Assembly: GCF_051903065.1 (NCBI RefSeq)
Contig: NZ_CP178438.1
Strand: one strand, 5' to 3'
DNA from: Escherichia coli
GTDB taxonomy: Bacteria > Pseudomonadota > Gammaproteobacteria > Enterobacterales > Enterobacteriaceae
DNA: 64,000 nt
The notes below the pieces were generated by a model, which worked only from the letters and a program-made list of their open reading frames with translations, was not told the DNA's origin and searched no databases. A program made the position numbers and the translations under genes. This document shows, in pieces, positions 2,897 through 45,574 of the stretch; within the stretch, counting starts at the first letter, position 1, and each line of letters opens with the position of its first letter.

Positions 2897-3406
2897 TTAA
2901 TGATACAAATTAGAGTGAATTTTTAGCCCGGAAAGTTGTCTCGTTGCGTGAGAGGATGCGCTTACCGGACGCATAATAAACCCCATCGCGTTACCTTCAT
3001 TTGCCGCATCAACAAGTTCAGCATGCTCTTCTTCAGTCAAATCATCTGCCAACCAACCGATCACCACACTGTAATTGCCCGTGCGTAAAGCGCGAACCAT
3101 TGACTCCACGGTGTGGCAAGGGGAGAGCTGGCTAATCTGCATTACTTTTGTTAAGGGTAGCCCAGATGCCTGAACCCATTCCCGACTCAGTTTTTGTTGC
3201 GGTGTTAACCAGAGTTGCCAGCGCGATTGCTGACCGAGTTGCTGTAACAATGGCAACAGTAGAAGTTGCGTCATCATGGGCTGATCTTCGCGATAGACAA
3301 CTTCACTGATAAGCCCGGCTGTAGTGTTTTCCGTAGAGACACGCGCAATTTTACTTGCTGCGGATGAGAACGACGAAGAACGATGTGCATAGCCTGAAGT
3401 GTACAT
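2897..3406 (-). CDS. sulA: SOS cell-division inhibitor SulA
   Basis: [41 protein letters not shown]...; LexA box immediately upstream; start trimmed to ATG at 3406. Confidence 0.95.
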
Positions 3407-3624: not shown

Positions 3625-4254
3625 ATGAAAAGCCTCTCCTATAAGCGGATCTATAAATCACAAGAATACCTGGCAACGTTGGGCACAATTGAATACCGAT
3701 CATTGTTTGGCAGTTACAGCCTGACCGTTGACGACACGGTGTTTGCGATGGTTTCTGATGGTGAGTTGTATCTTCGGGCTTGTGAGCAAAGTGCACAGTA
3801 CTGTGTAAAACATCCGCCTGTCTGGCTGACATATAAAAAGTGTGGCCGATCCGTTACCCTCAATTACTATCGGGTTGATGAAAGTCTATGGCGAAATCAA
3901 CTGAAGCTGGTGCGTCTGTCGAAATATTCTCTCGATGCAGCGCTGAAAGAGAAAAGCACGCGCAATACCCGGGAAAGACTGAAAGATTTGCCCAATATGT
4001 CTTTTCATCTGGAAGCGATTCTCGGGGAGGTGGGGATTAAGGATGTACGGGCGTTACGTATACTTGGGGCAAAAATGTGTTGGTTGCGACTGCGGCAGCA
4101 AAACAGTCTGGTGACAGAAAAGATTCTGTTTATGCTTGAAGGTGCCATTATCGGCATTCATGAAGCTGCGCTCCCGGTGGCACGCCGCCAGGAGCTTGCA
4201 GAATGGGCTGACTCTCTTACGCCGAAACAGGAGTTTCCTGCGGAACTTGAGTAA
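3625..4254 (+). CDS. sxy: Competence regulator Sxy/TfoX
   Basis: 209-aa ORF MKSLSYKRIYKSQEYLATLGTIEYRSLFGSYSLTVDDTVFAMVSDGELYLRA... (TfoX N- and C-domains); conserved position after sulA. Confidence 0.9.
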   Translation: MKSLSYKRIYKSQEYLATLGTIEYRSLFGSYSLTVDDTVFAMVSDGELYLRACEQSAQYCVKHPPVWLTYKKCGRSVTLNYYRVDESLWRNQLKLVRLSKYSLDAALKEKSTRNTRERLKDLPNMSFHLEAILGEVGIKDVRALRILGAKMCWLRLRQQNSLVTEKILFMLEGAIIGIHEAALPVARRQELAEWADSLTPKQEFPAELE

Positions 4255-6370
4255 TCTGGCGTTGCAGACGACCAATCTCTGGCAGTAATGCAATCAATAA
4301 CCCAACTTGTTGTACGACCAGAGGTTCTTTGCTGTCTGCCCGTGGTTCAAGTTGCTGCATCCGCTGTTTCAGGCCAGCTAATGCCTGATTGACGCGTTCT
4401 TCGTCAGCAGGTTGATGATGTAACGCGTCATCAACATAGCAAACTGCGTCATCAAGAAACGCCAGAATTTCAGGATTAGTTAACTGCTCCCGGTGAGCAC
4501 CGAGGGCTGAGATATAGCTGGTAAACGTATGGTTAAGGCACAGCAACCGAAACGCGGCTTCGCGAATTTGCGGGGTAACGTTCGGTTCGCTGGACATATT
4601 TGATACCACCGACGCCAGTTCAGCATCACGGTTGTGTGCATCGCGGCGGGCAATACGATACGCCAGACGGTTATCACGCCCCTGATGGTATTGCTCCAGT
4701 ATGGCATCGAGATACCGGCAGTTGGCCTCTGTGGCGCGTTCGAGCATTCGCGGCAGATTGCGAAACTTCCAGTCAGGCCAGATGTAGCTCACTGCCGCCC
4801 ACGCAATGGCACAACCAATCAGCGTATCGATTACGCGAGGTAACGCTACTTCAAAACCTTCACCCAGCAAGTTAAAACACAGTAGCACCAAAAGTGTGAT
4901 GAACATCGTTGCATGGGCATATTGCACGTTACGGAAGGCAAAAAAGAGCACGCCGGTAATAACCAGTAGCACCAGCTGCCCTTCCAGTGATGGCACAAAC
5001 CACAGCACAGGAATGCCAATGGCGATACCTACCAGCGTACCAATAATCCTTAACTTCAGGCGGTGGCGCGTGGCGTTATAGTTTGGCTGGCAGACAAACA
5101 AACTTGTCAGCAAGATCCAATACCCGTGATGCATTCCGGTTATTTGAATGATGGCGTAGCCGAAGCACAACACCAGCGACATTCTTACCGCATGACGGAA
5201 GAGGGCGGATTCCGGCGTGAAGTGACGGCTAAGACGCAGCCAGATATCACTCAATCCGTGCGGGCTGTCATCAGCGAGCTCATTTTCGTCATTATTATGG
5301 GGCAGTGCCTGGGCCTGTTCTGATTCAATTGTTGCCAGTTGGGCATCAATGGCGCGTAAATTGTTCAGCAAAAATCCCAGTGTTTTGAGTAAATCGGCAG
5401 GCGCGCCGTTATCGCGCATCCGCTCCAGGGCAGCATCAATATGCGTAAAAGCGCGCTCAAAATGCGGATCATGTTGATAAGGCTGACGCAGCAAAATACA
5501 GCGTGACAGTTGCTGGCACGCCTGGCCCTGCATCGACATCAGCCGCTGAAAACGGAACAGCACGTCGCTGTGGCGAAAATGTTCACGCAATGTTTGATAC
5601 TGAATATGAGAAGAGCTGGCACGCTCGTGAATATCCTGTGCGACAAAGTAATAATGCAGCGTGCGACGCGTTCCCCGTTGACCACGATCGCCACGTAAGC
5701 GGGTCAGCAGCGAGAGTTTCGTCTGATTCAATGTCGCCATCAACTGACCGTTGGCGAGAGCCAAATCGTACAGCGGTGCCTGGCTTTCATCTTCAATATC
5801 AGGATCAAACATGCGCGACTTGAGCTCAAGATAACGCGCCAGTTGTTCATAGCAACGCGCCAGGTTGTCCTGCAGCGGGCGGACCGGGAACAGCAGATGA
5901 CCAATAAGTGTCAGGACGTTGTACCAGACGGCACCGGCCAGCAGATACATCGGCTGCTGATACCAGTGCTCATACAGTGATGTTCCCAACATAGTGTAAA
6001 TGGCGATCAGCAATGCACCGAAGGCAATTGTTGCATAGCGTTGACCCAGACCGCCGAGCAAAATGAAGCCGCTGGTAGAGAGCGTTAAGCCAATCGCAAA
6101 TAGCCAGGGCCAGGGAAACAGCAATTCTACTGAGGCCGAGGCGATAAAAAAGCAGAACAGCGTAATGATGAGGTTACGCAAACGTCCCGCCAGTCGGTCA
6201 TCGAGATCGGTCAGCGCCGCTGCCACCATCCCCAGCGTCAGCGGAATCGTCAGTTTTACATCACCCAGCCACCACGGAAACGCTGTGGTTCCACAAAGCG
6301 CAATAAAAATACGCGCGTAATACAGCCAGGCGCTGTTCCAGGTATAGCGTTTGAGCAAAGGACTTAGCAT
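4217..6370 (-). CDS. yccS: Inner-membrane protein YccS (FUSC-like putative transporter)
   Basis: 720-aa ORF with many hydrophobic segments; start set to ATG at 6370 (717 aa) but the ATG at 6379 is equally possible; 3' end overlaps sxy convergently. Confidence 0.85.
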   Translation of the reverse strand: MLSPLLKRYTWNSAWLYYARIFIALCGTTAFPWWLGDVKLTIPLTLGMVAAALTDLDDRLAGRLRNLIITLFCFFIASASVELLFPWPWLFAIGLTLSTSGFILLGGLGQRYATIAFGALLIAIYTMLGTSLYEHWYQQPMYLLAGAVWYNVLTLIGHLLFPVRPLQDNLARCYEQLARYLELKSRMFDPDIEDESQAPLYDLALANGQLMATLNQTKLSLLTRLRGDRGQRGTRRTLHYYFVAQDIHERASSSHIQYQTLREHFRHSDVLFRFQRLMSMQGQACQQLSRCILLRQPYQHDPHFERAFTHIDAALERMRDNGAPADLLKTLGFLLNNLRAIDAQLATIESEQAQALPHNNDENELADDSPHGLSDIWLRLSRHFTPESALFRHAVRMSLVLCFGYAIIQITGMHHGYWILLTSLFVCQPNYNATRHRLKLRIIGTLVGIAIGIPVLWFVPSLEGQLVLLVITGVLFFAFRNVQYAHATMFITLLVLLCFNLLGEGFEVALPRVIDTLIGCAIAWAAVSYIWPDWKFRNLPRMLERATEANCRYLDAILEQYHQGRDNRLAYRIARRDAHNRDAELASVVSNMSSEPNVTPQIREAAFRLLCLNHTFTSYISALGAHREQLTNPEILAFLDDAVCYVDDALHHQPADEERVNQALAGLKQRMQQLEPRADSKEPLVVQQVGLLIALLPEIGRLQRQITQVPQETPVSA

Positions 6371-6388
6371 AAAGGCCATATTAGTGGA

Positions 6389-6835
6389 TTATTCAAAACG
6401 ACGACGTGCATTGGCTTCACGCGCAGCTTGCGCTGTTTCTACCGATACCACGCGACGACCGACCGGCCATAGTGCAATAGCGGCAATTTTAAAGTTCGCA
6501 ATGCCGACAGGAATGCCAATGATTGAAATACATTGTGCGATGCCCGTTGCAATGTGCATCAGGCATAACCACCAGCCAAAGAAAATCAGCCAGAAAATAT
6601 TCAATACCGTACCGCCAGTATTCAGCAGCACATTTTTGCCAGCCGGGTTCAGTTCATCGACATGAATAGCTTCATTGCCATAAGGCACCAGAGACAGTTT
6701 AGTGATCTCCCAGCAGGATCGTGTCAGCGGTAAGGTAAAAATCAGCACAATACTGACCAGAGTCGCCAACAGCCAGCCCAGAGTGGTGGCAAATCCGCCA
6801 AGCACAAAGTTCAGAATGTTCAAAACGGTACGCAT
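6389..6835 (-). CDS. yccF: Inner-membrane protein YccF (DUF307)
   Basis: 148-aa hydrophobic ORF MRTVLNILNFVLGGFATTLGWLLATLVS...; conserved position. Confidence 0.9.
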   Translation of the reverse strand: MRTVLNILNFVLGGFATTLGWLLATLVSIVLIFTLPLTRSCWEITKLSLVPYGNEAIHVDELNPAGKNVLLNTGGTVLNIFWLIFFGWWLCLMHIATGIAQCISIIGIPVGIANFKIAAIALWPVGRRVVSVETAQAAREANARRRFE

Positions 6836-6957: not shown

Positions 6958-9012
6958 ATGGAACTGAAAGCGACAACGCTTGGAAAACGTCTGGCACAGC
7001 ACCCTTACGATCGGGCGGTGATCCTCAATGCCGGGGTTAAAGTCTCCGGCGATCGCCACGAATACCTTATTCCTTTCAATCAATTACTGGCGATTCACTG
7101 TAAGCGCGGTCTGGTATGGGGCGAGCTGGAATTTGTACTGCCGGACGAAAAAGTGGTGCGTCTGCACGGCACCGAATGGGGCGAGACGCAGCGTTTTTAC
7201 CATCATCTTGATGCTCACTGGCGGCGGTGGAGTGGCGAGATGAGCGAAATTGCGTCTGGTGTTTTACGCCAGCAACTGGATTTGATTGCCACGCGCACTG
7301 GAGAAAATAAATGGCTGACGCGTGAGCAAACCTCTGGCGTTCAGCAACAAATCCGCCAGGCTTTGTCGGCGTTGCCGTTGCCGGTTAACCGACTGGAAGA
7401 ATTCGATAACTGCCGTGAGGCGTGGCGTAAATGTCAGGCCTGGTTGAAAGATATTGAAAGCGCTCGGTTGCAGCATAACCAGGCATATACCGAAGCCATG
7501 CTTACCGAGTATGCGGATTTTTTCCGCCAGGTCGAGTCTTCACCGCTGAATCCGGCGCAGGCCCGGGCAGTCGTTAATGGCGAGCATTCTCTGTTAGTGC
7601 TGGCAGGTGCAGGAAGCGGAAAAACGTCGGTGCTGGTGGCCCGTGCAGGCTGGTTGCTGGCGCGTGGTGAAGCGTCCCCTGAGCAAATTTTATTGCTGGC
7701 GTTTGGTCGCAAAGCCGCTGAAGAGATGGACGAGCGTATTCGCGAACGGCTACATACCGAAGACATTACCGCACGCACGTTTCATGCGCTGGCGCTGCAT
7801 ATTATTCAGCAGGGCAGCAAAAAAGTTCCGATAGTCAGCAAACTGGAAAATGATACCGCTGCCCGTCATGAACTCTTTATTGCTGAGTGGCGCAAGCAAT
7901 GCAGCGAAAAGAAAGCGCAGGCGAAGGGCTGGCGGCAATGGCTGACGGAAGAAATGCAGTGGTCAGTGCCAGAAGGTAACTTCTGGGATGATGAAAAATT
8001 ACAGCGTCGTCTTGCCTCACGCCTCGATCGTTGGGTAAGTCTGATGCGGATGCACGGTGGTGCACAGGCAGAAATGATTGCCAGTGCACCCGAAGAGATT
8101 CGCGATCTGTTCAGTAAACGTATCAAGTTGATGGCCCCGTTATTAAAAGCCTGGAAAGGTGCGTTGAAGGCAGAAAACGCTGTCGATTTTTCGGGCCTTA
8201 TTCATCAGGCGATTGTGATTCTGGAGAAAGGTCGCTTTATCAGCCCGTGGAAGCATATTCTGGTTGATGAATTTCAGGATATCTCGCCGCAGCGGGCAGC
8301 GTTGTTAGCGGCATTACGCAAGCAAAACAGTCAGACGACGTTGTTCGCCGTTGGTGATGACTGGCAGGCGATTTACCGATTCAGCGGTGCGCAAATGTCG
8401 CTCACCACCGCTTTCCATGAAAACTTTGGTGAAGGCGAACGCTGTGATTTAGACACGACTTACCGTTTTAACAGTCGTATCGGTGAGGTGGCAAACCGGT
8501 TTATTCAGCAGAACCCAGGCCAGCTGAAAAAGCCGCTAAACAGCTTAACCAATGGAGACAAAAAAGCCGTCACGTTATTGGATGAGAGTCAACTTGACGC
8601 TTTGCTGGATAAGCTCTCTGGTTATGCCAAACCGGAAGAGCGCATTCTGATCCTGGCGCGTTACCATCACATGAGGCCTGCCAGCCTGGAAAAAGCGGCA
8701 ACACGCTGGCCGAAGTTGCAAATCGACTTTATGACCATTCATGCCAGCAAAGGGCAACAGGCGGATTACGTCATCATCGTTGGCTTGCAGGAGGGAAGTG
8801 ATGGTTTTCCGGCTGCGGCGCGGGAGTCGATTATGGAAGAGGCGCTACTGCCACCGGTTGAGGATTTCCCGGACGCTGAAGAACGGCGGTTAATGTACGT
8901 GGCGCTGACCCGGGCACGTCATCGGGTATGGGCACTGTTTAACAAAGAGAATCCCTCTCCCTTTGTGGAAATACTGAAAAATCTGGATGTGCCGGTGGCG
9001 AGAAAACCGTAA
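6958..9012 (+). CDS. helD: DNA helicase IV (UvrD/Rep superfamily 1)
   Basis: ORF with Walker A AGAGSGKTSVLV and SF1 helicase motifs; start trimmed to MELKATTLGKRL (ATG 6958) giving 684 aa. Confidence 0.95.
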   Translation: MELKATTLGKRLAQHPYDRAVILNAGVKVSGDRHEYLIPFNQLLAIHCKRGLVWGELEFVLPDEKVVRLHGTEWGETQRFYHHLDAHWRRWSGEMSEIASGVLRQQLDLIATRTGENKWLTREQTSGVQQQIRQALSALPLPVNRLEEFDNCREAWRKCQAWLKDIESARLQHNQAYTEAMLTEYADFFRQVESSPLNPAQARAVVNGEHSLLVLAGAGSGKTSVLVARAGWLLARGEASPEQILLLAFGRKAAEEMDERIRERLHTEDITARTFHALALHIIQQGSKKVPIVSKLENDTAARHELFIAEWRKQCSEKKAQAKGWRQWLTEEMQWSVPEGNFWDDEKLQRRLASRLDRWVSLMRMHGGAQAEMIASAPEEIRDLFSKRIKLMAPLLKAWKGALKAENAVDFSGLIHQAIVILEKGRFISPWKHILVDEFQDISPQRAALLAALRKQNSQTTLFAVGDDWQAIYRFSGAQMSLTTAFHENFGEGERCDLDTTYRFNSRIGEVANRFIQQNPGQLKKPLNSLTNGDKKAVTLLDESQLDALLDKLSGYAKPEERILILARYHHMRPASLEKAATRWPKLQIDFMTIHASKGQQADYVIIVGLQEGSDGFPAAARESIMEEALLPPVEDFPDAEERRLMYVALTRARHRVWALFNKENPSPFVEILKNLDVPVARKP

Positions 9013-9015
9013 GAA

Positions 9016-9040
9016 ACAGGTGGCGTTTGCCACCTGTGCA
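9016..9040. terminator. Hairpin between convergent helD and mgsA
   Basis: CAGGTGGC-GTTT-GCCACCTG inverted repeat. Confidence 0.6.
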
Positions 9041-9043
9041 ATA

Positions 9044-9502
9044 TTACTTCAGACGGTCCGCGAGATAACGCTGATAATCGGGGATCAGAATATCGACCGC
9101 GTCGTTGAAATGCGGCGACTGGATAATGAAGTCTGCCGTTGCCACGTTGGTGGCGACCGGAATGTTCCATACCGTCGCCAGACGCAGCAAGGCTTTCACG
9201 TCAGGATCGTGCGGCACGGCATTTAGTGGATCCCAGAAGAAAATCAATACATCAATTTTCCCTTCTGAGATCAATGCGCCAACCTGCTGGTCACCCCCCA
9301 TTGGGCCACTCAACATCGCGTTGACGTTCATGCCGGTTGCGCGGGAAATCAAGTTACCGGTAGTGCCTGTTGCATACAGTACGTGTTGTTCCAGTAACGG
9401 TTGATGTCGTTCCACCCAGCTCATCAGCATTTGTTTGCAGTGATCGTGTGCTACCAGCGCAATATGTTTCCGCGCAGGTAAAGTGCGAGTCGTCAGTTCC
9501 AT
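9044..9502 (-). CDS. mgsA: Methylglyoxal synthase
   Basis: [52 protein letters not shown]...; start trimmed to ATG 9502 (152 aa). Confidence 0.95.
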
Positions 9503-10432: not shown

Positions 10433-10846
10433 ATGAAAGAAACCGATATTGCAGGCATTTTAACGTCCACTCACACCATTGCGCTGGTGGGGGCAAGCGA
10501 CAAACCCGATCGTCCCAGCTATCGCGTGATGAAATATCTACTCGACCAGGGGTATCACGTCATTCCGGTTTCGCCAAAAGTTGCCGGCAAAACGCTGCTA
10601 GGCCAGCAGGGGTATGGCACGCTGGCAGACGTTCCGGAAAAGGTCGATATGGTCGATGTTTTCCGTAATTCAGAAGCGGCGTGGGGCGTGGCGCAGGAAG
10701 CTATCGCCATTGGCGCGAAAACCCTCTGGATGCAACTGGGGGTGATTAATGAGCAAGCGGCAGTACTGGCAAGGGATGCCGGGTTAAATGTGGTGATGGA
10801 TCGCTGCCCGGCTATTGAGATCCCTCGCCTGGGCCTGGCCAAATAA
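10433..10846 (+). CDS. yccU: CoA-binding domain protein YccU
   Basis: [44 protein letters not shown]...; GGAGG RBS upstream of ATG 10433. Confidence 0.9.
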
Positions 10847-10884
10847 AAAATCCCCGGAAGGCAAAAACCTTCCGGGGATTTGTT
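10845..10884. terminator. Bidirectional Rho-independent terminator between yccU and hspQ
   Basis: A6-TCCCCGGAAGG-loop-CCTTCCGGGGA-TTTGTT. Confidence 0.85.
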
Positions 10885-10890
10885 CAGGGA

Positions 10891-11265
<375 letters not shown>

Positions 11266-12550: not shown

Positions 12551-12829
12551 ATGTCGAAAGTCTGCATAATTGCCTGGGTTTACGGGCGAGTTCAGGGCGT
12601 AGGATTTCGCTATACCACGCAGTACGAAGCGAAAAAACTCGGGTTAAGCGGGTACGCCAAAAATCTTGACGATGGCAGCGTGGAAGTGGTTGCCTGCGGT
12701 GAAGAAGGGCAGGTAGAAAAATTAATGCAGTGGTTAAAGAGTGGCGGCCCGCGTTCTGCGCGTGTAGAACGGGTGCTCAGCGAGCCGCATCATCCCTCGG
12801 GTGAATTAACCGATTTTCGTATCCGTTAA
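12551..12829 (+). CDS. acyP: Acylphosphatase
   Basis: 92-aa [49 protein letters not shown]... (acylphosphatase signature VxGxVQGVxFR); ATG at 12551. Confidence 0.9.
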
Positions 12830-13155
12830 ATACACTTTACCGGTTTTGGCAGGCCAGCAATTTTGGTGGCTTGCTTAGCCGGACCTTTCGGAAACAGTCG
12901 GTATAAATAGCGGCTGTTACCTTTTTCTTCGCCAAATTTATTCGCCATCGCTTTTACCAGCATACGAATCGCCGGAGAAGTATTGAATTCCAGATAGAAA
13001 TCACGCACAAAACGCACCACTTCCCAGTGTTCTGGCGACAGCGAAATCCCTTCGTTCTCTGCAATCACCACTGCCAGCGGCTCACTCCACTGGCTGCTTT
13101 CTTTGAGATAGCCTTCGGTATCCGTTTCTATCTCTTTACCTTCGAAGATCAGCAT
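12826..13155 (-). CDS. tusE: Sulfur-relay protein TusE (DsrC-like)
   Basis: [26 protein letters not shown]...GLPKPVKCI with C-terminal Cys; start trimmed to ATG 13155. Confidence 0.9.
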
Positions 13156-14111: not shown

Positions 14112-14199
14112 TGGCGGAAGCGCAGAGATTCGAACTCTGGAACCCTTTCGGGTCGCCGGTTTTCAAGACCGGTGCCTTCAACCGCTCGGCCACACTTCC
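14112..14199 (-). tRNA. serT: tRNA-Ser (anticodon UGA), 88 nt with long variable arm and CCA end
   Basis: Reverse complement GGAAGTGTGGCCGAGCGGTTGAAGGCACCGGTCTTGAAAACCGGCGACCCGAAAGGGTTCCAGAGTTCGAATCTCTGCGCTTCCGCCA folds as a class II tRNA. Confidence 0.95.
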
Positions 14200-23102: not shown

Positions 23103-24407
23103 ATGAAAGCGATCTTGATCCCATTTTTATCTCTTCTGATACCGTTAACCCCGCAATCTACATTCGCTCAGAGTGAGCCAGAGCCGGAGCTGAAGCTGGA
23201 AAGTGTGGTGATTGTCAGTCGTCATGGTGTGCGTGCCCCAACCAAGGCCACGCAACTGATGCAGGATGTCACCCCAGACGCATGGCCAACCTGGCCGGTA
23301 AAACTGGGTTGGCTGACACCGCGCGGTGGTGAGCTAATCGCTTATCTCGGACATTACCAACGCCAGCGTCTGGTAGCCGACGGATTGCTGACGAAAAAGG
23401 GCTGCCCGCAGCCTGGTCAGGTCGCGATTATTGCTGATGTCGACGAGCGTACCCGTAAAACAGGCGAAGCCTTCGCCGCCGGGCTGGCACCTGACTGTGC
23501 AATAACCGTACATACCCAGGCAGATACGTCCAGTCCCGATCCGTTATTTAATCCTCTAAAAACTGGCGTTTGCCAACTGGATAACGCGAACGTGACTGAC
23601 GCGATCCTCAGCAGGGCAGGAGGGTCAATTGCTGACTTTACCGGGCATCGGCAAACGGCGTTTCGCGAACTGGAACGGGTGCTTAATTTTCCGCAATCAA
23701 ACTTGTGCCTTAACCGTGAGAAACAGGACGAAAGCTGTTCATTAACGCAGGCATTACCATCGGAACTCAAGGTGAGCGCCGACAATGTCTCATTAACCGG
23801 TGCGGTAAGCCTCGCATCAATGCTGACGGAGATATTTCTCCTGCAACAGGCACAGGGAATGCCGGAGCCGGGGTGGGGAAGGATCACTGATTCACACCAG
23901 TGGAACACGTTGCTAAGTTTGCATAACGCGCAATTTTATTTACTACAACGCACGCCAGAGGTTGCCCGCAGCCGCGCCACCCCGTTGTTGGATTTGATCA
24001 TGACAGCGTTGACGCCCCATCCACCGCAAAAACAGGCGTATGGTGTGACATTACCCACTTCAGTGCTGTTTATCGCCGGACACGATACTAATCTGGCAAA
24101 TCTCGGCGGCGCACTGGAGCTCAACTGGACGCTTCCAGGTCAGCCGGATAACACGCCGCCAGGTGGTGAACTGGTGTTTGAACGCTGGCGTCGGCTAAGC
24201 GATAACAGCCAGTGGATTCAGGTTTCGCTGGTCTTCCAGACTTTACAGCAGATGCGTGATAAAACGCCGCTGTCATTAAATACGCCGCCCGGAGCGGTGA
24301 AACTGACCCTGGCAGGATGTGAAGAGCGAAATGCGCAGGGCATGTGTTCGTTGGCCGGTTTTACGCAAATCGTGAATGAAGCACGCATACCGGCGTGCAG
24401 TTTGTAA
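23103..24407 (+). CDS. appA: Periplasmic pH 2.5 acid phosphatase / phytase (histidine acid phosphatase, RHGVRAP motif)
   Basis: ORF MKAILIPFLSLLIPLTPQSTFAQSEPEPELKLESVVIVSRHGVRAPTK...; start trimmed to ATG 23103. Confidence 0.95.
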   Translation: MKAILIPFLSLLIPLTPQSTFAQSEPEPELKLESVVIVSRHGVRAPTKATQLMQDVTPDAWPTWPVKLGWLTPRGGELIAYLGHYQRQRLVADGLLTKKGCPQPGQVAIIADVDERTRKTGEAFAAGLAPDCAITVHTQADTSSPDPLFNPLKTGVCQLDNANVTDAILSRAGGSIADFTGHRQTAFRELERVLNFPQSNLCLNREKQDESCSLTQALPSELKVSADNVSLTGAVSLASMLTEIFLLQQAQGMPEPGWGRITDSHQWNTLLSLHNAQFYLLQRTPEVARSRATPLLDLIMTALTPHPPQKQAYGVTLPTSVLFIAGHDTNLANLGGALELNWTLPGQPDNTPPGGELVFERWRRLSDNSQWIQVSLVFQTLQQMRDKTPLSLNTPPGAVKLTLAGCEERNAQGMCSLAGFTQIVNEARIPACSL

Positions 24408-24413
24408 TGCATA

Positions 24414-24443
24414 AAAAAGAGCATTCAGCTACCTGAATGCTCT
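24414..24443 (-). terminator. Rho-independent terminator downstream of etk
   Basis: AGAGCATTCAG-CTACC-TGAATGCTCT stem-loop followed on the minus strand by U6. Confidence 0.75.
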
Positions 24444-24526
24444 GAGGCTGATGACAAACGAAGAACTGTCTAATGCGTAGACCGGAAAAGGCGTTCACGC
24501 CGCATCCGGTCACTTTACCTTCAGTT

Positions 24527-26707
24527 TTACTCTTTCTCGGAGTAACTATAACCGTAATAGTTATAGCCGTAACTGTAAGCGGTGCTGGCGCGTTTAATCA
24601 CACCATTGAGGATTGCGCCTTTAATATTAACGCCAGCCTGTTCCAGACGCTGCATTGACAAACTCACCTCTTTGGCGGTGTTCAGGCCAAAACGTGCAAC
24701 CAGCAGGCTGGTGCCGACAGAGCGCCCCACGACCGCAGCATCGCTCACCGCCAGCATCGGCGGCGTATCGACAATCACCAGATCGTAATGGTCGTTCGCC
24801 CATTCCAGTAATTGACGCATCCGATCGCGCATCAGCAGTTCAGACGGGTTAGGTGGCACCTGACCGCGAGTAATCACATCAAAGCCTCCTTTGCCAAAAT
24901 GCTGGATCACTTTGTTGAGCTCATCTTTACCTGCCAGATATTCCGACAAGCCATGTTCATTACTCACGGTAAACAGGTTATGCGAATAACCACGGCGTAA
25001 GTCGGCATCAATAAATAACACTTTTTGATCGGACTGGGCGATCACCGCTGCCAGAGTTGAACTGACAAATGTTTTACCACTGTCTGGCGTCGCACCGGTG
25101 ATCATCAGAATGTTATTCTCAGTCTCCATCATAGCGAAATGCAGACTGGTTCGTAGCGCACGTACGGCTTCCACAGCAGAATCCGCCGGGTTATCCACCG
25201 CCAGGAAGGGGATATTTTTAGTACGATGGCGCTGCTGATTAGAAAATAAATTTTTCTTACGCAGACGGGTGCGTTTATCCAGCCACTCGGACATCGGGAT
25301 GGTGGCATAAACGCTGATGCCGTGCTCTTCCAGTTGTTCCGGGGCTTCTACACCACGACGCAACATCGCACGCGCCAGCACGGCACCCACCGAAATAAAC
25401 AGGCCAAGAATAAAACCAAGCACCACATTCAACGCTTTTTTCGGTTTCACTGGCTGCGGCTGAGTGACTGCCGGGTCGATAATCCGCACGTTACCAATCG
25501 CACTGGATTTCGAAATACTCAACTCCTGCTGGCGGTTAAGTAATTGCAGATATACCGCACGGCCCGCTTCTACGTCACGACTTAAACGCAACACTTCCTG
25601 TTGGGTGGAAGGCATTGCCGATACCCGCTTATTCAGGCGTTTGCGTTCTTGCTCCAGCGTCTGGCGTTTTTCCAGCAGCGCACGATAAGTTGGGTGATCT
25701 TTCTTATACAGCTGGGAGATCTCTGCCTCGCGGAAGGTCAGCTCATTGAGTTGATTATCAACGTTCACAATCTGCTCAAGAACGGCTTTGGCTTCCAGGT
25801 TAAGGTCAACCGAATCGCGCTGCTGGCGATAAACGTTGAGTTTTTCTTCCGCCTGGTCCAGCTCGCTGCGCACTTCAGGCAACTGGCGCTGTAAGAATTC
25901 AAGGCTTTGTGAATCCTGCGCCGCCTGGCGAGCGATATTCTGTTGCAAATAGTTGTTAGCGATGCTGTTCAGTATACGGGTAATCAACTGGGGATCATCA
26001 CCGGTCATGGTAAGTTCCAGCATCCCGCTTTCTTTACTGCGTTCGCTAACGGTAAAGGTTTCCTGCAACGCGTTAATCGCTTCCAGTTCGGTACGTTGGC
26101 TCAGGACAAACTGTGTTCCTGGTTTGGCCTTAATATCCGCGATAGTCAGCGCAACGCCATCTTTTTCCAGACGCTGGCCGACCATACCATTGACGGTGAA
26201 CTCTTCACCTTCCAGCGTATAGTGGCCGTTTTCCCCAACCGTGAGTGTCAGTAGCTGATCCTGACCATTCAGTTGTGGAATATGCATCCAGCTGATCGCC
26301 AGCTCACCTGGTTTCTCTTTGGTTAATCTCGCCCAGCCGCGACCCACAATCGGAAAATACTTCTGCTCAACCATGTCGCGCAGATTCAGTTCAGCAATGG
26401 TTTTACCGAGAATCATGCGCGATTGCAGCAGTTGGATCTCCGGTGCAGACTCGGGCGATGAGTTAGGGATCATATCACTCAGGCCGCTGAGAATGGCGTT
26501 GCCCTGTTTTTGCTCAACCTGGACCAGAGTATCTGCCTGATAAATTGGTGTGCTTAACAGCGAGTAAGCGACAGCGATCAGCGTGAATAACGCGGTCACG
26601 CTGATAATAAACTTACGGTGATCCCATAACTCGCCGACCAGACGAAGCAGATCGATCTCATTTTCCTGAGTGCTGCCTGGTGGCGTATTCATATTTTTAG
26701 TTGTCAT
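24527..26707 (-). CDS. etk: Tyrosine autokinase (BY-kinase, Wzc paralog) of the group 4 capsule cluster
   Basis: 726-aa ORF with Walker A GKT and C-terminal tyrosine cluster YSYGYNYYGYSYSEKE. Confidence 0.95.
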   Translation of the reverse strand: MTTKNMNTPPGSTQENEIDLLRLVGELWDHRKFIISVTALFTLIAVAYSLLSTPIYQADTLVQVEQKQGNAILSGLSDMIPNSSPESAPEIQLLQSRMILGKTIAELNLRDMVEQKYFPIVGRGWARLTKEKPGELAISWMHIPQLNGQDQLLTLTVGENGHYTLEGEEFTVNGMVGQRLEKDGVALTIADIKAKPGTQFVLSQRTELEAINALQETFTVSERSKESGMLELTMTGDDPQLITRILNSIANNYLQQNIARQAAQDSQSLEFLQRQLPEVRSELDQAEEKLNVYRQQRDSVDLNLEAKAVLEQIVNVDNQLNELTFREAEISQLYKKDHPTYRALLEKRQTLEQERKRLNKRVSAMPSTQQEVLRLSRDVEAGRAVYLQLLNRQQELSISKSSAIGNVRIIDPAVTQPQPVKPKKALNVVLGFILGLFISVGAVLARAMLRRGVEAPEQLEEHGISVYATIPMSEWLDKRTRLRKKNLFSNQQRHRTKNIPFLAVDNPADSAVEAVRALRTSLHFAMMETENNILMITGATPDSGKTFVSSTLAAVIAQSDQKVLFIDADLRRGYSHNLFTVSNEHGLSEYLAGKDELNKVIQHFGKGGFDVITRGQVPPNPSELLMRDRMRQLLEWANDHYDLVIVDTPPMLAVSDAAVVGRSVGTSLLVARFGLNTAKEVSLSMQRLEQAGVNIKGAILNGVIKRASTAYSYGYNYYGYSYSEKE

Positions 26708-32894: not shown

Positions 32895-33180
32895 ACAAAT
32901 TCCTTACTGAAAATACTGCGCTGCACTATACGGGGTTAATAAAATAAAGCCAGCGATATTTAAGACCGCCGGACGGCTAAAATAAAATTTGCTTAATCTC
33001 AATTATCATGCGTTAATAGCTGCGTCGGTTTGAAAGACAGACAGCATACAAAGTAGTTTACTAAAGCAGTTCTCATTATCAGGCATTATCCCCTTCTTTT
33101 GAGTCTCTCTCCTGAACACTAAGTAGTTTCTGTATTAAAGCCCTGTTTGCCGAAAGGCCCAACAATGAAGGAAGTAAAAT

Positions 33181-33393
33181 ATGTCTAATAAAATGACTGG
33201 TTTAGTAAAATGGTTTAACGCAGATAAAGGTTTTGGCTTTATCACTCCTGATGATGGCAGCAAAGACGTTTTCGTCCATTTCACCGCCATCCAGAGCAAT
33301 GAATTCCGCACGCTGAACGAAAATCAGAAAGTTGAATTTTCTATTGAGCAGGGGCAACGTGGCCCCGCGGCAGCGAACGTTGTTACGCTCTAA
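33181..33393 (+). CDS. cspG: Cold-shock protein CspG
   Basis: 70-aa [41 protein letters not shown]... with RNP motifs. Confidence 0.95.
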
Positions 33394-33394
33394 G

Positions 33395-33592
33395 GTTGCC
33401 GTTATTACTCAACATCTCCATTTCCGCTGTCCATGTTGTCATGGTTCACAGTACCGTACATCGGCATTCGATGTGACGGAGCGAAACCCTTTGGGCGCTA
33501 AGTGTATTTTTTGTAAATCGACGATGATCACCTTTGATAACGTCGCGCTGCAAATACGCACTGACCATGCGCCGCTGGATTTCACAAAATAA
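33395..33592 (+). CDS. ymcF: Small CxxC zinc-ribbon-like protein downstream of cspG (start codon uncertain)
   Basis: Open frame ...HFRCPCCHGSQYRTSAFDVTERNPLGAKCIFCKSTMITFDNVALQIRTDHAPLDFTK ending at 33592; the track ORF 33332-33592 overlaps cspG so the true start must be a non-ATG or internal codon. Confidence 0.45.
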   Translation, partial: VAVITQHLHFRCPCCHGSQYRTSAFDVTERNPLGAKCIFCKSTMITFDNVALQIRTDHAPLDFTK

Positions 33593-33797: not shown

Positions 33798-33960
33798 AGA
33801 GTTAAAAAAACAAGCCGAAACGGAAATCGCCGACTTTATCGCGCAAAAAATCGCCGAGCTGAACAAGAATACAGGGAAAGAAGTCTCTGAAATTCGCTTC
33901 ACCGCACGAGAAAAAATGACCGGGCTTGAAAGTTATGATGTCAAAATCAAAATAATGTGA
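33787..33960 (+). CDS. gnsB: GnsB (GnsA/GnsB family small protein)
   Basis: GTG-initiated 57-codon ORF VNIEELKKQAETEIADFIAQKIAELNKNTGKEVSEIRFTAREKMTGLESYDVKIKIM; too short for the ORF track. Confidence 0.8.
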   Translation: MNIEELKKQAETEIADFIAQKIAELNKNTGKEVSEIRFTAREKMTGLESYDVKIKIM

Positions 33961-34008
33961 TTTTGTGAACATCACCCCGTGCGAGGTGATGTTCCGCTTG
34001 TTGCTAAT

Positions 34009-35082
34009 TTAGTGACCAATCATTGGCGCTTGTGGAATTAAGCGTCGGTACAATTCCTCCGGCACCGGGCTTTGCCATACTCCCGCATACATTGCGTAAC
34101 CAATCACCGCAAACATAATCCCCAAAACCAGTAGTGTCATTAACCAGCCAGACAACGCAAAGGCTTTTTTATTTGCCGCAGGTTTTTGCAGTGAAAAGGT
34201 CAATGTTGAGGCTACCGGACATGACTCTACGCAAGTCATACAGCCGGTACATTCCACTGTTCGTACCTGAATTAATTTATCGACCGGGATCCGTGATGGG
34301 CAATTTTTTGCGCATTTGCCACAATCGATACAACTTTCGGCATTGCGACGAATCTTAAACGGCGATAATAGCGAAACCACGCCCATCAGCGCGCCATATG
34401 GGCAAAGATAACGACACCAGGCATGGCGAATAAACAGGCTGGCAATCAGCAAAACGGTCACGCTGATTAATGTCGCGGTCCCCATATGACGAAAGAAATC
34501 GAGCATTTTAACGTCCATCACCACGCTGTAGGGCGACAACATAAAATAGTGAATCGCCTGAGCGGGCATCAATAACGCGATATAGAGAAAAAAACTCAAC
34601 AGCACATACTTCACGCCGCGCAGAGGAATATCCAACCAGCGGGGAAGGACACATTGCCGACCAAACAGTTTGTTACCGAGAGCGCCGATTAATTCAGAAA
34701 GCGTACCAACCGGGCATAACCATGAGCAAAAGGCCTTTTTGAGTAATAGACTGATGACGATAAAAGCGACCAATAACAGCATCGCGGCGGCGTGGACGGA
34801 CGGTAACTGACCTGTTGCAAGGCTATATTTCAGATTCATCAGACCGGCAATCGGTAGCCAGCCTTCGATACCTCCCGGTCTGGCGACAAATGTCGTGCTA
34901 CTTGCCGTTTCGTAATAGCGCACCCAATACCAGAACGTGATGGCAATATAAATATTCATTGCCAACAGCAATAATTGCGTCGCTTTACGCCAGGTCGTGG
35001 CATTGTGCCAGTCATTCCACGGTAATTTGCCGCCCGTCGTGCCTGGCCGCCGCTGCCAGCGGGTTCTTTTATTCTCTGCCAT
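34009..35082 (-). CDS. yccM: NapH/MauN-like membrane-bound 4Fe-4S ferredoxin
   Basis: 357-aa ORF with TM segments and CxxCxxCxxxCP ferredoxin motifs (CIDCGKCAKNCP, CTGCMTCVESCP). Confidence 0.9.
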   Translation of the reverse strand: MAENKRTRWQRRPGTTGGKLPWNDWHNATTWRKATQLLLLAMNIYIAITFWYWVRYYETASSTTFVARPGGIEGWLPIAGLMNLKYSLATGQLPSVHAAAMLLLVAFIVISLLLKKAFCSWLCPVGTLSELIGALGNKLFGRQCVLPRWLDIPLRGVKYVLLSFFLYIALLMPAQAIHYFMLSPYSVVMDVKMLDFFRHMGTATLISVTVLLIASLFIRHAWCRYLCPYGALMGVVSLLSPFKIRRNAESCIDCGKCAKNCPSRIPVDKLIQVRTVECTGCMTCVESCPVASTLTFSLQKPAANKKAFALSGWLMTLLVLGIMFAVIGYAMYAGVWQSPVPEELYRRLIPQAPMIGH

Positions 35083-37980: not shown

Positions 37981-39009
37981 ATGCGCGTACTGCTATTTTT
38001 ACTTCTTTCCCTTTTCATGTTGCCGGCATTTTCGGCTGATAACCTGTTGCGCTGGCATGATGCGCAGCATTTCACGGTGCAAGCCTCTATGCCGCTAAAA
38101 GCCAAACGCGTATGGAAACTGTGCGCGCTTTATCCCAGCCTGAAAGATTCATACTGGTTATCGTTGAACTATGGTATGCAGGAGGCTGCTCGCCGCTACG
38201 GTGTGGATTTAAAAGTGCTGGAGGCAGGCGGCTACAGCCAGTTGGCTACCCAGCAAGCACAAATCGACCAGTGTAAACAGTGGGGCGCAGAGGCCATTTT
38301 GCTCGGTAGTAGCACGACGTCATTTCCCGATCTGCAAAAGCAGGTAGCAAGTCTGCCGGTGATCGAACTGGTAAATGCTATTGATGCTCCCCAGGTGAAA
38401 AGCCGCGTTGGTGTACCCTGGTTTCAGATGGGCTATCAACCTGGGCGATATCTGGTGCAATGGGCGCACGGTAAACCACTGAACGTGCTGTTGATGCCCG
38501 GACCCGATAACGCCGGGGGCAGTAAGGAGATGGTCGAGGGTTTTCGCGCAGCCATTGCCGGAAGCCCGGTGCGTATTGTTGATATTGCGCTCGGTGATAA
38601 CGATATTGAAATCCAGCGTAACCTGTTGCAGGAGATGCTGGAACGCCATCCAGAAATCGACGTCGTTGCCGGAACGGCCATTGCGGCAGAGGCGGCAATG
38701 GGTGAAGGGCGCAACCTGAACACGCCGCTTACCGTGGTGTCGTTTTATCTTTCACATCAGGTGTATCGCGGGCTGAAGCGGGGAAGAGTGATTATGGCTG
38801 CCAGCGATCAAATGGTCTGGCAGGGGGAACTGGCGGTTGAGCAGGCCATCAGGCAGTTACAGGGGCAATCGGTGTCTGATAATGTCAGCCCACCGATTTT
38901 AGTTCTGACGCCGAAAAATGCCGACCGAGAACATATCCGCCGCTCGCTGTCACCGGGGGGATTTCGTCCGGTCTATTTTTATCAGCACACATCAGCGGCT
39001 AAGAAATAA
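37981..39009 (+). CDS. torT: Periplasmic TMAO-binding protein
   Basis: 342-aa ORF with signal peptide MRVLLFLLLSLFMLPAFSA, periplasmic binding-protein fold. Confidence 0.95.
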   Translation: MRVLLFLLLSLFMLPAFSADNLLRWHDAQHFTVQASMPLKAKRVWKLCALYPSLKDSYWLSLNYGMQEAARRYGVDLKVLEAGGYSQLATQQAQIDQCKQWGAEAILLGSSTTSFPDLQKQVASLPVIELVNAIDAPQVKSRVGVPWFQMGYQPGRYLVQWAHGKPLNVLLMPGPDNAGGSKEMVEGFRAAIAGSPVRIVDIALGDNDIEIQRNLLQEMLERHPEIDVVAGTAIAAEAAMGEGRNLNTPLTVVSFYLSHQVYRGLKRGRVIMAASDQMVWQGELAVEQAIRQLQGQSVSDNVSPPILVLTPKNADREHIRRSLSPGGFRPVYFYQHTSAAKK

Positions 39010-39674
39010 CCTTCGCCATGTTGTGTCACCAGTAAATCCGCGCTGAGTTTATGGCGTAAACGACGAATTAACACATCGACGGTGCGCAGGTCAGGGTTTT
39101 CCACCCGACGCGCAGAGAGCATACGCAGCAGACGTTCACGGCTGAGAATTTCTCCCGGATTCGTCACAAATGCCACCAACATTTCATACTCTGCGCGGGT
39201 CAGTTTAATCGGCTCACCATCCCGCTCCAGCGTATGGCGCGACACATTCAGGCAATAACCCGCAAAGCGATAGCAGTTGTCCTGAGTGAGCGGTTGAACT
39301 TGTCGCGCGAGGTCGATTCGCCAGAGCAGATTTTTTACCCGTACTACCAGTTCGCGCAGTTCCAGCGGTTTGGTGACGTAATCGTCTGCGCCCATTTCCA
39401 GCCCAACAATACGGTCAATCCGATCGCTGCGTCCGGTAACCAGAATAATCCCCACCGTTGAGCGTTCTCGCAGGGCGCGGGTTAACATCAGGCCATTTTC
39501 ATCGGGCAAGTTGATATCCAGCAGAATTAAATCCACCGGCTGATTCTGCATAATTTCCCGTAGCCCGGCACCGCTCGCCGTAACGGAAACGGTATACCCC
39601 TCCTGAGTGAAGTAGGATTGTAATCGCGCCTGGGTAACCGGCTCATCTTCAACAATAACAATGTGATGTGGCAT
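38982..39674 (-). CDS. torR: Response regulator TorR (OmpR family)
   Basis: 230-aa ORF MPHHIVIVEDEPVTQARLQSYFTQEGY...; 3' end overlaps torT by 28 bp. Confidence 0.95.
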   Translation of the reverse strand: MPHHIVIVEDEPVTQARLQSYFTQEGYTVSVTASGAGLREIMQNQPVDLILLDINLPDENGLMLTRALRERSTVGIILVTGRSDRIDRIVGLEMGADDYVTKPLELRELVVRVKNLLWRIDLARQVQPLTQDNCYRFAGYCLNVSRHTLERDGEPIKLTRAEYEMLVAFVTNPGEILSRERLLRMLSARRVENPDLRTVDVLIRRLRHKLSADLLVTQHGEGYFLAADVC

Positions 39675-44148: not shown

Positions 44149-44678
44149 TGAACTGCACCCCAAATGTTGGACATAATCTGACATCTGAAGGTGCAGTTTA
44201 TGAAACATTCATTTGAAGTAAAACTTGCCGCTGTAAATCATTACCTGGCCGGTCATGCAGGCATCATTTCTACGGCAAAACTCTTTCAACTTTCTCACAC
44301 CAGCCTCTCACACTGGATTAATCTTTTTCTTCTTCACGGTCCTCAGGCACTGGATTGCAGACACAAGCGTAGCTATTCTCCTGAAGATAAACTTTGCGTG
44401 GTTCTTTATGCTCTCGGGCATTCTGAGTCTCTACCCCGGGTAGCTGCCCGGTTTAACATTCCCAGCCACAACATGGTTAAAAACTGGATAAAAGGCTACC
44501 GCAAATCTGGTAATGAGGCCTTTATCAGGCGCAGGAAGGAGAAAAGCATGACCCGTTCTGATGATACCCATGAAAACGAGGCAAACATGACGCCGGAAGA
44601 GATGAAGAATGAGCTGCGTTATCTTCGCGCAGAAAATGCATATCTGAAAGCCATGCAGGAGCATCTCCTGGAAAAAAA

Positions 44679-45574
<896 letters not shown>

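Follow-up and report, generated by a model that had tools for sequence, protein, structure and literature searches.

The window analysed here is a 64,000-nt stretch of the Escherichia coli chromosome (contig NZ_CP178438.1 of assembly GCF_051903065.1), in which the convergent genes sxy and yccS, and likewise torT and torR, share coding sequence at their 3′ ends (Table 1). This arrangement raises the question of where transcripts end when two genes face each other without a spacer, and whether each gene can interfere with the expression of its partner. The sequence-only reading of the window had held that no terminator can lie between such genes, that the transcripts must run into the partner gene, and that this creates scope for mutual antisense interference. 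The explanation favoured in this work, to which a probability of about 0.75 was assigned, is that both overlaps are the outcome of passive genome compaction and not dedicated regulatory devices, that termination occurs inside the partner gene, and that any interference is rare and weak.

Table 1. Genes, shared coding stretches, RNA tracts and hairpin-bearing spacers of the window (coordinates of the window unless stated; for RNA tracts, the strand is that of the RNA).
Feature	Position	Strand	Size or value	Source or remark
sxy (tfoX), CRP-S regulon coactivator	3625-4254	+	209 aa	ORF listing and RefSeq
yccS, FUSC-like putative inner-membrane transporter	4217-6379	-	720 aa	ORF listing and RefSeq
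yccF, located upstream of yccS in yccFS, the operon converging on sxy	6389-6835	-		Annotation; Conway 2014
sxy/yccS common coding stretch	4217-4254		38 bp, 2 mod 3	TTACGCCGAAACAGGAGTTTCCTGCGGAACTTGAGTAA
C-rich, G-poor tract in RNA past the yccS stop, antisense to sxy	3967-4166	-	C/G up to 2.47
yccX	12551-12829	+
tusE	12826-13155	-
yccX/tusE convergent overlap, third in the window	12826-12829		4 bp, TTAA	Annotation and sequence
torT, periplasmic TMAO-binding protein	37981-39009	+	342 aa	ORF listing and RefSeq
torR, OmpR-type response regulator	38982-39674	-	230 aa	ORF listing and RefSeq
torT/torR common coding stretch	38982-39009		28 bp, 1 mod 3	TCAGCACACATCAGCGGCTAAGAAATAA
C-rich, G-poor tract in RNA past the torR stop (100-300 nt), antisense to torT	38682-38881	-	C/G up to 2.11
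Rho termination region, antisense to torT	~38550	-		MG1655 1056830; Adams et al. 2021, supplementary file 2
matP/ompA spacer with hairpin	1409-1485
helD/mgsA spacer with hairpin	9012-9044
yccU/hspQ spacer with hairpin	10846-10891
appA/etk spacer with hairpin	24407-24527
gnsA/yccM spacer with hairpin	33960-34009
agp/yccJ spacer with hairpin	49964-50002
ymdF/rutG spacer with hairpin	51392-51475
rutR/putA spacer with hairpin	57844-57884

The gene names and the lengths of both overlaps given in the sequence-only reading were exact to the base, and the ORF listing, RefSeq and the K-12 MG1655 reference concurred. In MG1655, the identical 38-bp overlap was found between sxy (1021138-1021767) and yccS (1021730-1023883), and the identical 28-bp overlap between torT (1056261-1057289) and torR (1057262-1057954). 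The window differed from E. coli NZ_AP045789.1 (1366518-1430517) at 3 of 64,000 bases, and the gene ends called there by PGAP were identical. Among 5,426 complete genomes of E. coli, approximately 5,400 contained both loci. The start codon of yccS was placed at 6379 by PGAP (720 aa), whereas the K-12 reference gives 717 aa (2154 nt); this 9-nt difference (6371-6379) left the 3′ overlap unaffected. Both pairs were convergent overlapping genes of the 3′ extension type, with shared 3′ coding bases.

A true stop lying earlier in one gene of each pair would make the overlaps an artefact of annotation. This possibility was considered solely because corrected gene ends had been named beforehand as an outcome that could undo the overlaps, and no point was found in its favour. 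Each gene end was the first in-frame stop codon and was unambiguous, PGAP and the K-12 reference annotation agreed, and gene ends set by stop codons are therefore not removable by re-annotation. Moreover, neither reading frame was interrupted within the overlap in any of the relatives, and their relative phase did not change: the sxy/yccS overlaps were all 2 mod 3 in length, and those of torT/torR (28 and 31 bp) were both 1 mod 3. An annotation artefact is thus extremely improbable, and the overlaps stand. They are also already known, being present in the reference annotation, and the transcript overlap has been catalogued by name.

The origin of the overlaps was explored according to the shape of the junctions in relatives. 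A scan with Sxy, restricted to one genome per species, gave 20 usable sxy/yccS loci from Escherichia, Citrobacter, Intestinirhabdus, Enterobacter and Lelliottia. The two genes overlapped in 20 of 20 loci, with lengths of 11, 23, 32, 35, 38, 41, 44 or 47 bp, and both stops shifted while both tails varied in sequence. In the junction alignment, the conserved protein cores were approximately 47 nt apart, and both stops wandered in between. This intervening stretch had hardly any invariant columns and the flanks had many, the overlap being the least conserved stretch of the junction across genera. As a side observation, a Sxy fragment 99% identical to that of E. coli was found on a 276-bp contig (NZ_VLXZ01000190.1, coverage ~1.1) of an Alkalicoccobacillus porphyridii assembly; this fragment almost certainly stems from contaminating E. 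coli DNA.

For torT/torR, the TorT relatives were taken from representatives of 50%-identity clusters and from look-ups of their contigs. In a relative whose TorT is 61% identical, the overlap was of identical length (28 bp), as seen on two independent contigs, and in one with 44% TorT identity it was 31 bp. In another relative (L031, 45% TorT identity), two genes were inserted between torT and torR and there was no overlap, and in two further TorT relatives torR was not adjacent to torT. The torT/torR overlap was ~64% identical to that of the 61%-identity relative by hand count, which was judged to be about the same as the remainder of the genes. Extra conservation, as a sign of dual constraint, was sought at both overlaps, and none was seen among the sxy/yccS relatives or in one tor relative. 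In both pairs (11-47 bp for sxy/yccS; 28 and 31 bp for torT/torR), the stop codons had moved while the protein cores stayed in register.

Other elements were observed around the tor locus. In another E. coli strain (L001, 37986-50000, and L002; NZ_CM128595.1), a lambdoid prophage was located between torS and torT, with genes for an integrase, an excisionase, bet/exo/gam, N, cII and O/P-like proteins; the strain of the window had no prophage there. This site is the attachment site of HK022, whose integration is reported to raise torS transcription and turn off aerobic torCAD expression (PMC6814406). Between torD and cbpM (44200-45548), the strain of the window carried an element of the IS3 family, annotated as IS1397, whose transposase involves a programmed frameshift.

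The overlaps of the window sat mostly in terminal tails or in the final few residues of Pfam domains. The overlap encoded residues ~198-209 of Sxy, in which the TfoX_C domain (Pfam) ends at 194 of 209, and residues ~709-720 of YccS, in which the last Pfam match ends at 685 of 720. In the other pair, residues ~334-342 of TorT and ~222-230 of TorR were encoded, and the Pfam domains end at 337 of 342 and 225 of 230, respectively. The tails of Sxy, YccS and TorT (for TorT, after FRPVY) were variable among relatives. The tail of TorR, GEGY(F/L)(L/F)AA.., was conserved, also in L031 where the genes do not overlap, and the torT/torR overlap is therefore not wholly a junk tail. Judging from these alignments, the end of torR is probably crossed passively by the reading frame of torT.

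The lengths of the overlaps were compared with those expected by chance. When the 57 annotated genes of the window were considered, a run-on into the antisense 3′ end of a neighbour met its first stop after a median of 63 nt, with values of 28 nt for the torT/torR phase and 68 nt for the sxy/yccS phase. Overlaps of 28-38 bp are thus no more than chance is expected to give once the spacer is gone. Within the window, 3 of 13 convergent pairs overlapped. In E. coli as a whole, 75 convergent overlapping pairs were reported as against 2 divergent ones, with stop-codon movement as the cause (Huvet and Stumpf, 2014, PMC4161906). Tail-to-tail overlaps have been described as arising via loss of the stop codon and 3′ extension (Huvet and Stumpf, 2014; Palleja et al., 2009, PMC2716372); both pairs are ordinary members of this class, and the wandering stops of sxy/yccS fit with such an origin.

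The overlapping state was nevertheless shared by all 20 sxy/yccS loci, although these had eight or more different stop configurations, and that of torT/torR was seen down to 44% TorT identity. No lineage with a gap between sxy and yccS was found among these loci, although such lineages would be expected if the stops drifted freely, and some pressure may therefore keep the genes interlocked. Deletion bias together with a minimum tail length could explain the conserved overlapping state equally well. That the interlocked arrangement was selected because the expression of the partners is coupled is distinctly unlikely.

The presence of terminators at the junctions was evaluated via consensus scans, RNA folding and Rfam. 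The consensus terminator scans of the window gave nothing at sxy/yccS or torT/torR, and their totals were no higher than those of shuffled sequence. Folding of 121-nt segments on both strands of both junctions revealed no structure beyond the shuffled expectation (z between -0.1 and -0.8), and no Rfam family matched at either junction. When the convergent pairs were folded, there was no hairpin at sxy/yccS, and the values for torT/torR and yccX/tusE were just -5 to -9 kcal/mol. By contrast, most of the non-overlapping convergent pairs in the window, eight in number, had spacer hairpins of -14 to -27 kcal/mol. Some of these were clearly bidirectional, as in yccU/hspQ (10848-10881; -23 and -27 kcal/mol on its two strands) and matP/ompA (1437-1474). 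Neither the sxy/yccS nor the torT/torR junction had a bidirectional intrinsic terminator, that is, a G+C-rich hairpin with an A-tract and a U-tract. These results fit the view that a spacer holding a terminator hairpin persists and that a hairpin-less spacer collapses into an overlap.

A relaxed terminator scan returned only weak candidates, among them a hairpin within torT directly ahead of the overlap with torR, namely ACCGGGGGGATTTCGTCCGGT (38952-38972, plus strand) followed by CTATTTTT (to 38982). It was rejected as a terminator. Its energy was -9.4 kcal/mol with a large loop, termination there would cut the torT mRNA ahead of its stop codon, and the U-tract was missing in the relative with 61% TorT identity (L028); the feature is probably due to chance.

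At the third overlapping pair, yccX/tusE, a stem-loop internal to tusE was observed on the plus-strand RNA leaving yccX (12840-12882). The 121-nt fold had an energy of -44.3 kcal/mol and z = -3.4, the fold of the opposite strand gave z = -0.7, and the stem-loop was accompanied by a weak U-tract. It may serve yccX as a terminator or pause site that acts in one direction, inside the coding sequence of tusE. The only Rfam matches in the window were a tRNA-Ser (14115-14199) and the cspA thermoregulator (33024-33447, plus strand, 159.7 bits), the latter extending over both the leader and the coding part of cspG (CDS 33181-33393).

With neither a spacer nor a junction hairpin, termination occurs inside the partner gene. 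The claim that no terminator lies between the genes was borne out as regards the junctions, and fell short in that a terminator can sit inside the partner. The latter was seen for the strand leaving torR, for which a bicyclomycin-sensitive region was mapped on the minus strand of MG1655 (Rho score 4.34, significance 2.2e-5; Adams et al., 2021, PMC7815308). When the coordinates were mapped from MG1655, this Rho region lay 432 nt beyond the end of torR, a position that is approximate since windows of 800 nt were compared in that study. The read counts near the site were a few tens. It was located downstream of the C-rich tract past torR, as Rho predicts. The torR strand was the only one of the four for which a bicyclomycin effect on read-through was found in the published data. 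No Rho region was listed there for sxy or yccS, and no Term-seq 3′ end for sxy, yccS or torR; the lack of a sxy/yccS entry is probably due to low expression. Rho is known to suppress antisense transcription, with 51.5% of the mapped Rho termination regions being antisense to genes (Adams et al., 2021), and the region antisense to torT and downstream of torR is one of the same kind.

The composition of the RNA was consistent with an ending by Rho for two of the four strands. The tract antisense to sxy lay 50-250 nt past the yccS stop, ranked in the top 0.35% of the antisense-of-CDS windows, and had more C than G in 19 of 19 loci. The tract antisense to torT was in the top 1.1% of windows. Both are predicted Rho loading regions on the basis of their base composition. 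The RNA downstream of sxy and torT was not C-rich, unlike that past yccS and torR. For torT reading into torR, the C-rich character was weak (C/G maximum 1.74). The RNA past the sxy stop (4255-4700, plus strand, antisense to yccS) was G-rich, with C/G of 0.6-1.2 over approximately 450 nt; this was so in every genus (L005-L024), and no obvious Rho loading site was present. Hence a conserved asymmetry exists at sxy/yccS: RNA leaving yccS meets a C-rich tract at once, and RNA leaving sxy meets none. Going by this composition, sxy read-through might extend far into yccS.

These observations also bear on whether the opposing polymerases themselves end transcription. In the SEnd-seq model of collision-driven bidirectional termination, a hairpin pauses the polymerases, which are released by head-on and trailing collisions. 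Overlapping bidirectional terminators of this type (Ju et al., 2019; Wang et al., bioRxiv 10.1101/2022.10.23.513370) are likewise found in convergent pairs, with the transcript ends in the shared region; the model covers hundreds of E. coli convergent pairs, and the convergent geometry without a spacer would suit it. However, a pause-inducing hairpin in the shared region is required and the process works best at high expression, both of which were absent here: neither junction had a hairpin beyond the shuffled expectation, and expression is low. Furthermore, the bicyclomycin sensitivity past torR indicates Rho instead. Collision-driven termination is therefore very unlikely at these junctions.

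The route of compaction considered most probable may be described as follows. Where convergent genes have no intrinsic terminator hairpin, nothing would hold the spacer, and the spacer would be lost. The unconstrained tails of Sxy, YccS and TorT would then read over the stop of the partner to the next chance stop. During expression, the ribosome would be released at the stop codon, and the untranslated antisense RNA would be exposed to Rho. An ending of the Rho type is shown by the published data for torR into torT, and for yccFS into sxy it is a prediction from the C-rich, G-poor tract. The overlaps, their place in the tails, the lack of hairpins and the Rho site past torR are observed facts; we infer this evolutionary route as well as the small size of any interference.

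The extent to which the shared ends could matter for expression was examined against earlier transcript maps. A coding overlap implies that, in each pair, the 3′ end of one full-length mRNA is complementary to that of the other. The scope for mutual antisense interference proposed from the sequence is generic, as 276 of 370 convergent E. coli operons (~75%) have overlapping 3′ ends, 286 nt on average (Conway et al., 2014, PMC4161252); pairs of mRNAs with complementary 3′ ends are thus the norm among convergent operons of this species. The sxy and yccFS operons were drawn as converging in that study. In most of its cases, a terminator located in the spacer is leaky and is read through, whereas here there is neither a spacer nor an intrinsic terminator. 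A stationary-phase antisense transcript over sulA (2897-3406, plus strand) was also reported there, on the strand of sxy and heading towards it; this transcript ends or runs on ~200 nt upstream of the sxy start.

Both pairs are also named, together with yccX-tusE, among the 165 convergent excludons of MG1655 reported with ExcludonFinder (Sanmartin et al., NAR 2025, PMC12288877), where the excludome comprises those seen in half or more of 58 RNA-seq data sets. As in the present pairs, convergent excludons are opposite-strand neighbours with overlapping transcripts and with possible interference and RNase III cleavage. Hence the idea of read-through and interference raised from the sequence corresponds to the published excludon concept. 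Both pairs have overlapping transcripts in the sense of this concept, given the coding overlap, their place in the ExcludonFinder list and, for sxy/yccFS, the map of Conway et al. (2014). Several differences were noted. Excludons were called there by RNA-seq coverage and mostly overlap in untranslated regions, the intergenic distance averaging 95 nt, whereas here the coding sequences overlap. Overlapping terminators were predicted in 146 of 165 pairs, whereas no convincing intrinsic terminator was found at either junction here. The pair validated in that work was relBE-ydfV and not sxy-yccS or torT-torR. Excludon pairs in general show higher synteny (Sanmartin et al., 2025).

The two pairs may also be viewed as functional excludons, in which selection kept the interlocked 3′ ends and each gene, when transcribed, reduces the expression of its partner through collision, RNase III or both. 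Membership in the excludome agrees with this view, but any two transcribed genes with overlapping coding sequences are called an excludon automatically. The overlap arrangement was retained in all of the sxy/yccS loci and in distant tor loci; the sxy/yccS overlap itself, however, was the least conserved part of its junction, varying from 11 to 47 bp, and no structure or motif was found at the junctions. Minus-strand transcription reaches at least ~430 nt into torT, where it is restrained by Rho, and the G-rich RNA past sxy, ~450 nt in every genus, would allow read-through far into yccS. Such encounters should nevertheless be rare, all the partners being lowly expressed. The TorT:TorS ratio is known to control the noise of torCAD, and sxy is positively autoregulated; sxy and yccS have no obvious functional link. 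A search of the literature found no experiment on interference for sxy/yccS or torT/torR. On balance, functional excludons are an unlikely explanation, and passive compaction with termination inside the partner is retained.

The size of any interference was considered in light of expression levels. For sxy, no natural inducing condition is known in E. coli, and torT and torS are aerobically repressed to extremely low levels. Since sxy, yccFS, torT and torR are weakly transcribed, polymerase collisions and RNA duplexes would be rare and would have little effect on dosage. [quoted passage not shown] A large effect of interference is unlikely.

If selected coupling were true after all, two versions may be envisaged. 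In one, Rho-limited read-through RNA from torR would set the extremely low level of TorT and also the TorT:TorS ratio, which drives the cell-to-cell variability of torCAD. In the other, a long antisense transcript from autoinduced sxy would switch off yccFS. As regards experimental work, a 3′-end deletion or tagging of sxy, yccS, torT or torR changes the partner gene too; the published torT-lacZ fusion strains were delta-torR, and the reason was not given in that paper. Should interference between torR and torT prove real, it would provide a further, cis-acting input to signalling whose noise is tied to very low levels of TorT and TorS.
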